Virus record (IMG/VR): IMGVR_UViG_2513237200_000008
From: a virus
Lineage: Duplodnaviria; Heunggongvirae; Uroviricota; Caudoviricetes
Strand: one strand, 5' to 3'
Length of the DNA: 49,114 nt
The position numbers and the translations under genes are program-made. The notes under the pieces are model-generated. The model did not search any database. It was not told the DNA's origin and saw only the letters and a list, made by a program, of their open reading frames with translations. This document shows positions 8,919 through 9,902 of the stretch, piece after piece (positions within the stretch are counted from its first letter, which is position 1; every line of letters starts with the position of its first letter).

Positions 8919-9274
8919 CTGGTCCCATTAAAAAACACAACATCGATGTTATAGGTGGGGTTCTCAGCCCCATCTACCCTTGAAATTGCCAGTGATGCAA
9001 AATATCCGGCAAACTGTTGCTGAACCATGTTCACATAGTAGTCCGGGTAAATCTGCTGCACGATGCACTGCTGTGCTGGAATGCCGTAATTCGCGTAAAA
9101 CGGCGACTCCCCCACCCCCAGCTTTAACGTCTGAATGAGCGTCGTCAGCCAGCCGTAGGAGAAATCACCGTTGGCGTCAGATTCTACAGCAACCCATTTT
9201 TTATTGCCGTTCACGTCGGTGACGCGGCCCCATGTCCTCATCGTGCCCTCACCACCATCGGATCTGCCCAACAA
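8894..9274 (-). CDS. Baseplate/tail protein (gp46/gpW-like)
   Basis: 126-aa ORF in the baseplate module. Confidence 0.45.
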
Positions 9275-9347
9275 AATATCCAGACGCCAGAATCAGAAAG
9301 ACCAACCAGATAAGTAAAAACTTCCAATTGGGAAATTTCTCGCCCAT
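9249..9347 (-). CDS. Small hydrophobic peptide (32 aa, [32 protein letters not shown]), paralog A
   Basis: Found by manual translation; paralogous to the peptide at 9515-9613; weak RBS. Confidence 0.25.
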   Translation of the reverse strand: MGEKFPNWKFLLIWLVFLILASGYFVGQIRWW

Positions 9348-9514
9348 AACTCGAATCTCAACTAGTAATTTATAAACAATGAAAAGAAACTTCATACAAA
9401 TCCATTTGTAACAATTAATTAACACCAAGTCATTCTATGCTTGAGTTCACGTAGCAAATCATCCATGAAGTAATTTGTTGTTTTTTCATTGCCATATGTA
9501 AAGTTATGTAAAAA

Positions 9515-9613
9515 TTACCGCCACCGGATCGCCTGAATCAAAGCGGATAGTCCAAATAAGAAAAACACACACCATATCAACAGGAATTTCCAGTTGGGTA
9601 ATCTTTCGCCCAT
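9515..9613 (-). CDS. Small hydrophobic peptide (32 aa, MGERLPNWKFLLIWCVFFLFGLSALIQAIRWR), paralog B
   Basis: AAGGAG Shine-Dalgarno 9 nt upstream of the ATG; single predicted transmembrane helix. Confidence 0.35.
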   Translation of the reverse strand: MGERLPNWKFLLIWCVFFLFGLSALIQAIRWR

Positions 9614-9630
9614 TTCTCGTAACTCCTTTA

Positions 9631-9846
9631 TCAGTTTTTCAGGTAAATCAATGTACCCGCCACTAATGCAGTACAAATGATCCAGGCAACAGGCGTAAGT
9701 ATGTGACGAATCCCTCGGCATACCGCGATTATCCTCGCAGCCTTATCTGCTCCTTGCGGAGTGGTCTCAGCCTTAATCATCAAATCGTCTCCAAATTTAT
9801 CTTTAGGTGCGCTAGAATTTGGCTGCATGAGTAATCTCCATGCCAT
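9631..9846 (-). CDS. Small membrane protein with C-terminal transmembrane segment (start uncertain; possibly the internal Met preceded by GGAG)
   Basis: 71-aa ORF; hydrophobic C-terminus LTPVAWIICTALVAGTLIYL. Confidence 0.3.
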   Translation of the reverse strand: MAWRLLMQPNSSAPKDKFGDDLMIKAETTPQGADKAARIIAVCRGIRHILTPVAWIICTALVAGTLIYLKN

Positions 9847-9868
9847 TTCAAATACTGTTCTGTTGATA

Positions 9869-9902
9869 CAAAAAGCCCCGAACTGTTGCAGCAGCCGGGG
9901 CT
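9869..9902 (-). terminator. Intrinsic-terminator-like hairpin (AGCCCCG ... CGGGGCT) followed by TTTTTG on the minus strand
   Basis: Read directly; about 35 nt downstream of the baseplate V-like gene stop. Confidence 0.45.

Follow-up and report, generated by a model that had tools for sequence, protein, structure and literature searches.

Small membrane-protein genes behind a terminator-like hairpin at a variable baseplate-gene junction of an Escherichia coli prophage

Dual-start holin/antiholin pairs, such as S107/S105 of lambda and S71/S68 of phage 21, use starts that lie 2–3 codons apart; the tail operon of HK97 contains a moron, gp15, whose product is an exclusion protein of the membrane, and T4 Imm likewise protects against incoming phages. 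In phage Mu, gp25 or "releasin" (DUF2730) is a protein of 99 amino acids (aa) that has a transmembrane (TM) segment at its N-terminus, oriented N-out, C-in, and an acidic domain of 73 aa in the cytoplasm (PMC9239132), and an Hfq-binding small RNA (sRNA), PasB, has been reported within phage structural operons (bioRxiv 10.64898/2026.05.13.724894; PMC8550237). Here we analyze a cluster of small genes in a stretch of 49,114 nucleotides (nt) from a tailed virus (IMG/VR record IMGVR_UViG_2513237200_000008; the whole stretch is called the window below), in which a terminator-like hairpin and several small open reading frames (ORFs) lie between a V-like and a W-like baseplate gene. An initial annotation, made from the letters alone, had pointed to two 32-codon ORFs at this junction.

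The picture we favor is that of an insertion hot spot between V and W, occupied by a promoter-less accessory cassette of small membrane-protein genes that would be expressed late, in dependence on the antiterminator Q, and would probably modulate lysis. The anatomy within this picture is near-certain. The picture as a whole we rate slightly short of evenly balanced, and a role in lysis for the peptide family itself as quite possible though improbable on balance.

The window peptides and the 45-residue family

The window is a lambdoid prophage, and the 1.2 kb tested is identical to the E. coli W chromosome. The hairpin and the small ORFs all lie on the minus strand amid late genes that are likewise all on the minus strand, and in coding order the junction holds the V-like gene, the hairpin, a 71-aa ORF, peptide 2, a 167-nt AT-rich spacer, peptide 1 and the W-like gene. 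The features are as follows.

9938..10651, minus strand: V-like baseplate spike gene, 237 aa, RefSeq "phage baseplate protein", with a weak GpV apex motif; left-hand border of the hot spot
9860..9907 (stem 9869-9902), minus strand: intrinsic-terminator-like hairpin, A-tract before and UUUUUGU after, directly after the V-like stop codon; heads the cassette cluster
9631..9828, minus strand: family C gene, 65 aa; N-terminus hydrophilic, then an amphipathic helix, TM segment at the C-terminus
9515..9637, minus strand: family A copy 2, with the 32-aa peptide MGERLPNWKF...IRWR at 9613..9515; PHROG 6632, E = 9.1e-13
9419..9466, minus strand: short ORF MDDLLRELKHRMTWC* in the AT-rich spacer, read from the sequence
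9249..9395, minus strand: family A copy 1, with the 32-aa peptide MGEKFPNWKF...IRWW from ATG 9347; PHROG 6632, E = 2.4e-17
8894..9241, minus strand: W-like baseplate gene, 115 aa, phrog_7986; right-hand border of the hot spot

The two 32-codon ORFs (9347..9249 and 9613..9515) occur precisely as the initial annotation gives them. They had been called paralogous, and this was borne out: the peptides have 17 of 32 residues in common and both match PHROG 6632, referred to here as family A. Because these matches are significant, the likeness of the peptides is not a matter of chance. The initial annotation could not assign them to a known family; the database search now places them in PHROG 6632, to which no function is attached. 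What had been overlooked is that the 32-aa peptides are parts of a 45-aa protein, and that neither copy retains its canonical start.

The consensus of family A reads MIDFSKLIRELRxMGEKLPNWKFLLIWxVFFLFGLSSLIxAIRWW. A search of 5.8 billion proteins returned 57 relatives, most of them exactly 45 aa long, from E. coli, E. fergusonii, E. albertii, Salmonella, Citrobacter, Enterobacter, Klebsiella, Yersinia and Providencia; homologs also occur in Pseudomonas phages. A profile search against 1.84 billion representatives gave 55 clusters, all of 86 aa or less, and no link to any larger family. Pfam, NCBIfam and PADLOC returned no match for family A or for families B, C and D, which are found at the same junction in relatives (see below), and the matches in PHROGs were solely to families of unknown function.

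The proposal that these are real genes for small single-helix membrane proteins has held up. In 41 distinct intact family A genes from the fetched loci, the proportion of synonymous differences (pS) over codons 15–45 is 0.66 and that of non-synonymous differences (pN) 0.18, a ratio of 0.27, which points clearly to purifying selection on this part of the protein. Codons 2–13 give a ratio of 0.49 with a pS of only 0.24, and AGC5, AAA6, GAG10, CGA12 and ATG14 are unchanged in 41 of 41 genes. A GGAG nine nt upstream of ATG14 is invariant as well, and together with the invariant ATG14 it suggests a dual start, so that family A would be translated from two sites. Even the most divergent members keep the amphipathic N-terminal pattern, and almost all of them keep Met14. 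The first start is weak: among about 121 family A genes classified, it is GTG in 105 and TTG in 4.

AlphaFold2 models the 45-aa protein as a helix at residues 4–17, a break at Pro/Asn 19–20 and a second helix at 20–44, with a predicted local distance difference test score (pLDDT) of 82. Five basic residues precede the TM helix and one follows it. The protein is thus predicted to consist of a cytoplasmic amphipathic helix followed by a C-terminal TM helix and to be tail-anchored, N-in and C-out. At the nucleotide level, the 3′ end of the gene (TGGTGGTGA) resembles a Shine-Dalgarno (SD) sequence and the stop codon abuts the start of the next gene.

Measured against this family, both window copies match only profile positions 14–45 of PHROG 6632, and neither has codon 1 with its canonical GTG, the helix MxDFSKLIRELR at the N-terminus or the conserved leader. 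On this alignment the window copies are best described as 5′-truncated derivatives retaining residues 14–45, the C-terminal two thirds, of the 45-aa protein. In copy 2, homology begins at codon 6 (tblastn aligns family residues 6–44 with 9637..9521) and the upstream frame still reads ..IDLPEKLIKELREM.. with no start codon, leaving ATG14 at 9613 as the only usable start; the strong AAGGAG ribosome-binding site (RBS) that had been noted is indeed there, 9 nt before this ATG. Alignment with an intact progenitor (locus L066) and with the C gene of locus L017 exposes a C::A fusion at copy 2. By this comparison an intact family A gene was joined, at about its codon 7, to the 3′ end of the 65-aa gene; the fusion made the last codon and stop of the 65-aa gene and removed the leader and start of A. 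In copy 1, tblastn aligns residues 1–45 of the Rac-SA53 subtype with 9386..9252 at 69% identity; a degenerate N-terminal region (..FIVYKLLVEIRVM..) is recognizable up to 9386, the canonical start is gone, and an in-frame ATG at 9395 would yield a product of 48 aa. The stop of copy 1 lies 7 nt ahead of the W-like ATG, and GGTGGTGAGGG at this place could act as the SD of the W-like gene. In the spacer between the copies, the ORF at 9419..9466 may, tentatively, be the remnant of a third family A N-terminus (compare MxDFSKLIRELRxM); in one variant, P0034, reading through connects copy 2 with this ORF region.

The two copies are of different subtypes, copy 1 of the Rac-SA53 type and copy 2 of the L066 type, and were therefore probably joined by recombination rather than by local duplication. 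They lie 266 bp apart, and the repeat spans only 63 nt at 71% identity. The duplicated unit of about 250 bp that had been proposed does not exist: when the stretches of 167 nt ahead of the two ATGs are compared, their similarity does not exceed that of shuffled sequence (local score 9 vs 8.7 ± 1.2), and homology is confined to the ORFs with about 40 nt upstream. As to the third ORF, which had been described as having 65–71 aa, a 71-aa frame does exist at 9846..9631. Comparison within family C favors ATG 9828 and 65 aa: homologs in E. coli and Salmonella have 64–67 aa (one of them, P0058, starts MQPNSS), and with this canonical length the window gene probably starts at 9828.

With their starts and leaders lost, the two window copies could be non-functional remnants, scars of recombination that leave only the C gene, or nothing, active. 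We regard this as a real but unlikely explanation. Besides the missing codon 1 and leader, the degenerate N-terminus of copy 1 and the possible third fragment in the spacer speak for it, as do close relatives with frameshifted C or B genes (L014, L034) or a truncated C gene (L053) and a neighboring antirepressor (ant) gene that is annotated as a pseudogene. Against it, the 32-codon frames from ATG14 are intact, the AAGGAG of copy 2 is well spaced, and the arrangement of a C gene followed by two truncated A copies (C+A'+A') is kept in several IMG/VR prophages, with 17 complete E. coli genomes matching at least 80% of the surrounding 1.2 kb. If ATG14 is a natural start, the short isoform would still be encoded.

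The V|W junction and its hairpin-headed units

The junction was compared across 91 loci fetched via the W-like protein. Where V is 45–69% identical (Erwinia, Pantoea, Serratia and metagenomes), the V–W gap is −7 to +26 bp, with no room for a hairpin or an ORF, and relatives with abutting V and W have no hairpin. The E. coli clade has gaps of 247–1531 bp. Since V and W abut in the distant relatives, the V|W junction is an insertion hot spot. All V|W inserts that were opened start with the hairpin and continue with combinations of four families of small membrane-protein genes.

Family A: 45 aa, PHROG 6632
Family B: 49–55 aa, beginning MxNFSGGDW..
Family C: 54–71 aa, canonical length 64–67 aa; includes the 71-aa ORF of the initial annotation
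Family D: about 35 aa

The combinations seen are A; B; C; B+C; C+A'+A', as in the window; B+C+A'+A'; D+A+ant; and D+B+C+ant, some loci also holding a Rha/Ant-like gene on the same strand. Where a small gene comes last in an opened insert, it ends about 10 nt or less from the W ATG. Families A and B have the hairpin, the leader and the first five codons in common, and a profile comparison gives an 88% probability that they are related. In the window, GC content is 0.32–0.41 across 9300–9700, within the insert, and about 0.50 in the flanks; as is expected of a moron, the insert is absent from related phages and deviates in base composition.

The mid-operon hairpin at 9869–9902, already described as terminator-like, is well supported. 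It folds at −21.6 kcal/mol (z = −4.1; none of 200 shuffles as good), is followed by UUUUUGU and lies between the V-like and W-like genes. Over 38 distinct family A leaders, two stems are paired in 95.6% of cells and 10 of 18 pairs change on both sides, which none of 500 shuffles matched. The terminator-like structure is therefore real and shows covariation. In the leader of about 35 nt, the second and smaller stem covers part of the SD, and lineages that differ in sequence there still have a stem. Families B and C likewise stand behind such hairpins, in lysis cassettes and after tail-fiber genes. In the Salmonella locus L104 (3501–4081), a family C gene follows a gene for a 680-aa tail-fiber-like esterase (SASA/DUF6645), stands behind two consecutive hairpins and runs into the beginning of a DUF1353 gene, where the prophage ends. 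A family D ORF (MEIVNVTPKDICRILWHVVASICVIMLAWKLINLI; L042 and L057, at about 1800–2000), with a weak match to phrog_13775, has a copy of the hairpin on either side, which indicates that hairpin-plus-gene units can stack in series.

One gene downstream of the cassette, between the W-like and J-like baseplate genes, the window carries a convergent plus-strand insert of low GC (0.26–0.37) at 7964–8918. It contains a 179-aa ORF, which encodes a signal peptide and matches no family, and a gene for an AntA/AntB antirepressor that lacks the N-terminus. Among relatives, W|J is likewise variable, the second such site. The hairpin might then be mainly a bidirectional insulator against plus-strand transcripts of this 179-aa ORF/ant cassette, or of bor-like genes elsewhere, with the peptide genes merely adjacent. 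Its symmetry, with A- and T-tracts on opposite sides, fits such a role, as does the plus-strand fold of −18.9 kcal/mol followed by UUUCGCUUU. We nevertheless think this very unlikely, because the hairpin moves with the small gene into unrelated contexts and no convergent gene lies near the unit in Salmonella phage SEN34. Moreover, Yersinia similis L003 has the hairpin and A with no W|J insert, and relatives with W|J inserts have no hairpin. Service to the convergent plus-strand cassette was rejected on this ground, the hairpin and W|J inserts being uncorrelated across relatives.

The mobility of the unit is seen beyond this junction. Family A has relatives on 413 IMG/VR viral contigs and in 53 GenBank phage records, including H-19B and dozens of Shiga toxin (Stx1/Stx2) phages; each of the GenBank records has exactly one A locus. 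Among the GenBank and IMG/VR phages opened or classified, family A is often found in the lysis cassette, with the endolysin gene on one side and the spanin gene on the other. Over more than 120 loci, hairpin, leader of about 35 nt and ORF are kept as one unit, which lies between endolysin and spanin genes in E. coli and Enterobacter prophages, H-19B, a Stx2a phage and Salmonella phage SPN3UB; the same unit sits between the V- and W-like genes of the unrelated phage SEN34, in a Yersinia tail-tip region and in a Pseudomonas siphovirus tail operon. The endolysins that flank A and B are non-homologous (R21-type lysozyme, GH19, GH108, an M15-linked 93-aa gene), and the spanins are of several types. 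One IMG/VR phage has A in its lysis cassette (L110) and B+C at V|W (L016).

Several individual sites may be recorded here. H-19B (AF034975; L100 2995–3132; record 17551–17688) holds a 45-codon family A gene, with hairpin and leader, that is unannotated in its R–Rz gap, and most Stx1/Stx2 phage records with a match have no annotation at the site. In Pseudomonas phage YMC11/02/R656 (L189 2420–2647), hairpin, leader and a TTG-start ORF (LDFSKIIREVRIMTDKLSPPRFWALW...) lie among many small hypothetical ORFs in the tail region of a siphovirus, which shows that the unit is not confined to Enterobacterales.

Expression and possible function

No promoter-like sigma-70 site was found on either strand across 8400–10608 by a consensus scan, which atypical promoters could escape; the sole such site within 8400–10700 lies at 10609–10636, inside the V gene. 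Upstream of the lysis cassette, and of the entire minus-strand late operon that contains the hairpin, the window has a gene for a late antiterminator.

31800..32456, minus strand: Q-type late antiterminator gene, Pfam DUF1133 E = 2e-101, Phage_antitermQ E = 1e-6

After the Q gene come two tRNAs and a lysis cassette of two holin genes and an M15 endolysin gene, and then structural genes on the minus strand over about 29 kb. SEN34 and SPN3UB, which carry the unit, also have annotated Q genes. With a terminator ahead and no promoter, the small proteins are expected only on read-through by Q-modified polymerase: unmodified RNA polymerase would be blocked at the hairpin and Q-modified polymerase would pass it, in late lytic growth only. 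Such Q-gated expression is what we infer from the arrangement of genes and signals. Two further features of the late region were seen. The two tRNA genes lie at 31285–31435 (minus strand), between the Q gene and the lysis cassette, and a strong terminator-like hairpin at 19349–19367 (minus strand; GGGGAGC..GCTCCCC, then T6), directly past a 342-aa capsid-like ORF (20415..19387), is a second terminator within the late operon.

The same region bears on the suggestion that the peptides resemble type I toxins, membrane-depolarizing peptides curbed by an antisense RNA. Their small size (32–45 aa), hydrophobicity and richness in aromatic residues are compatible with this, and the tight damping of translation, by a GTG start and an occluded SD, would suggest toxicity. 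The likeness was otherwise not supported: besides the negative promoter scan on both strands of 8400–10608, no antisense RNA or Rfam match at the gathering score was found near the small genes, which are packed end to end in a late operon with stops abutting the next gene. The genuine hok/sok and RalA loci of the window were readily detected by the same tools, and we judge a type I system at this junction highly improbable. The hok/sok locus occupies 33691–34014 (minus strand), with a Hok/Gef ORF at 33873..33691 (Pfam E = 7e-23) and sok RNA at 33841–34014 (Rfam, 112.8 bits). The RalA antitoxin sRNA is at 47380–47558 (minus strand; Rfam, 219 bits) and is overlapped by an ORF at 47302–47583 (plus strand); this sRNA implies that a type I RalR/RalA system like the one in the rac prophage is present.

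Single-pass inner-membrane proteins, as predicted here, could also guard the lysogen or the infected cell against incoming phages by superinfection exclusion or a block to injection. The accessory, highly mobile and combinatorial nature of this low-GC cargo at a hot spot is in keeping with such a function, and so is its presence in the tail/baseplate operons of several phage types. With no promoter and a terminator upstream, however, the lysogen is not expected to express the genes, the start codon is weak and its SD partly occluded, and PADLOC has no match for A, B, C or D. We therefore consider exclusion unlikely. A known defence protein had been tried as a candidate and was rejected on the same PADLOC result.

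Under the Q-gated reading that we prefer, translation would begin at a weak GTG or TTG start with a small stem over its SD, and the dual start would give two isoforms, of 45 and 32 aa. These would insert N-in/C-out into the inner membrane and modulate a step at the envelope or in lysis, for example the timing of a holin or pinholin, much as dual starts give rise to holin/antiholin pairs. The repeated placement of the unit between non-homologous endolysins and spanins makes lysis timing the most likely target. In the window, only the 32-aa forms, or the 48-aa variant of copy 1, could be made, and the lysis cassette at 30601..29295 has no family A copy.

Several points weigh against this reading. 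No holin Pfam match was obtained for family A, whose members end in RWW right after the TM helix, without the charged hydrophilic C-terminus typical of holins. The unit also occurs in tail operons of several phage types, and the link to lysis cassettes may merely reflect permissive insertion sites; the locus sets were picked by similarity, so that counts of contexts are biased. Low synonymous change in codons 2–13 could stem from RNA structure or recombination and not from an internal RBS. The cassettes are dispensable, and some have the frameshifted C or B genes (L014, L034) or the truncated C gene (L053) mentioned above; the window copies, having neither canonical start nor leader, may be decaying partly or wholly. 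None of the peptide strings appears in the small-gene supplements of ribosome profiling in enterohemorrhagic E. coli Sakai, though late genes are not expected under those growth conditions.

A wider reading would make A, B and C an unrecognised class of "antitermination-gated" plug-in cassettes, each bringing a terminator, a structured leader, a weak first and an internal second start, and a 3′ SD for the gene that it displaces. The two isoforms might then form a pair of toxic peptide and inhibitor, an extra component of lysis control in Stx and other lambdoid phages, which in H-19B would occupy the unannotated R–Rz gap. We offer this as a speculative extension with a low chance of being right.

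The family was already in PHROGs with no function attached. The literature searchable here gave no account of the terminator-first layout, of the dual-start signature or of the presence in the R–Rz gap of H-19B and Stx phages, and nothing relevant on Rac-SA53 or on "between R and Rz" either. If the protein tunes lysis, it would bear on the timing of phage and Shiga-toxin release and add a component to the textbook holin-endolysin-spanin cassette. The layout inverts that of the classical moron, with the terminator first, the promoter absent and the 3′ end giving the SD of the next gene, and it suggests a general route by which phages could add genes strictly conditional on processive antitermination. 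For annotation, the "intergenic" R|Rz and V|W gaps hold conserved genes of 45–65 codons.

Comparison with described systems

The closest described relatives are the members of PHROG 6632 themselves (Rac-SA53 rac58, SEN34_23). The window peptides have the same TM helix, WKFLLIW...IRWW, and occupy the same V–W position as in Rac-SA53 and SEN34. The full PHROG 6632 unit differs in having 45 codons, a GTG or TTG start and the hairpin and leader directly ahead, all of which the window copies lack.

PasB was rejected as a counterpart, since it belongs to another prophage, where it lies between gpI and gpJ and on the opposite strand, and the window does not contain its probe sequence. Type I toxins of the Hok/Gef group are similar in size, single hydrophobic helix and damped translation; they differ in that family A showed neither an antitoxin RNA nor its own promoter, and gave no family match. 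The Mu releasin resembles family A as a small membrane-tethered, mostly cytoplasmic protein encoded near the endolysin that acts on lysis without being a holin (PMC9239132). The layout of family A is the opposite one, however, and its genes also stand beside endolysins that are not of the R21 type and in tail operons; with opposite topology and no DUF2730 match, identity with the releasin was discarded.

Like the dual-start holin/antiholin pairs, family A would consist of small late membrane proteins; it lies in a lysis cassette in many phages, and it has a putative second in-frame start with an SD-like sequence and RNA structure at the first start. In family A, however, the starts are 13 codons apart rather than 2–3, only three residues follow the single TM helix, and its phages already carry holin genes. 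The lambdoid morons (HK97 gp15, lambda bor and lom) are comparable as extra genes between conserved late genes that are absent from relatives, deviate in composition, come with an intrinsic terminator and often encode envelope proteins. In the classical moron, which the prophage expresses, a promoter of its own precedes the gene and the terminator follows it, whereas the units described here have the terminator upstream, no detectable promoter and genes packed end to end.

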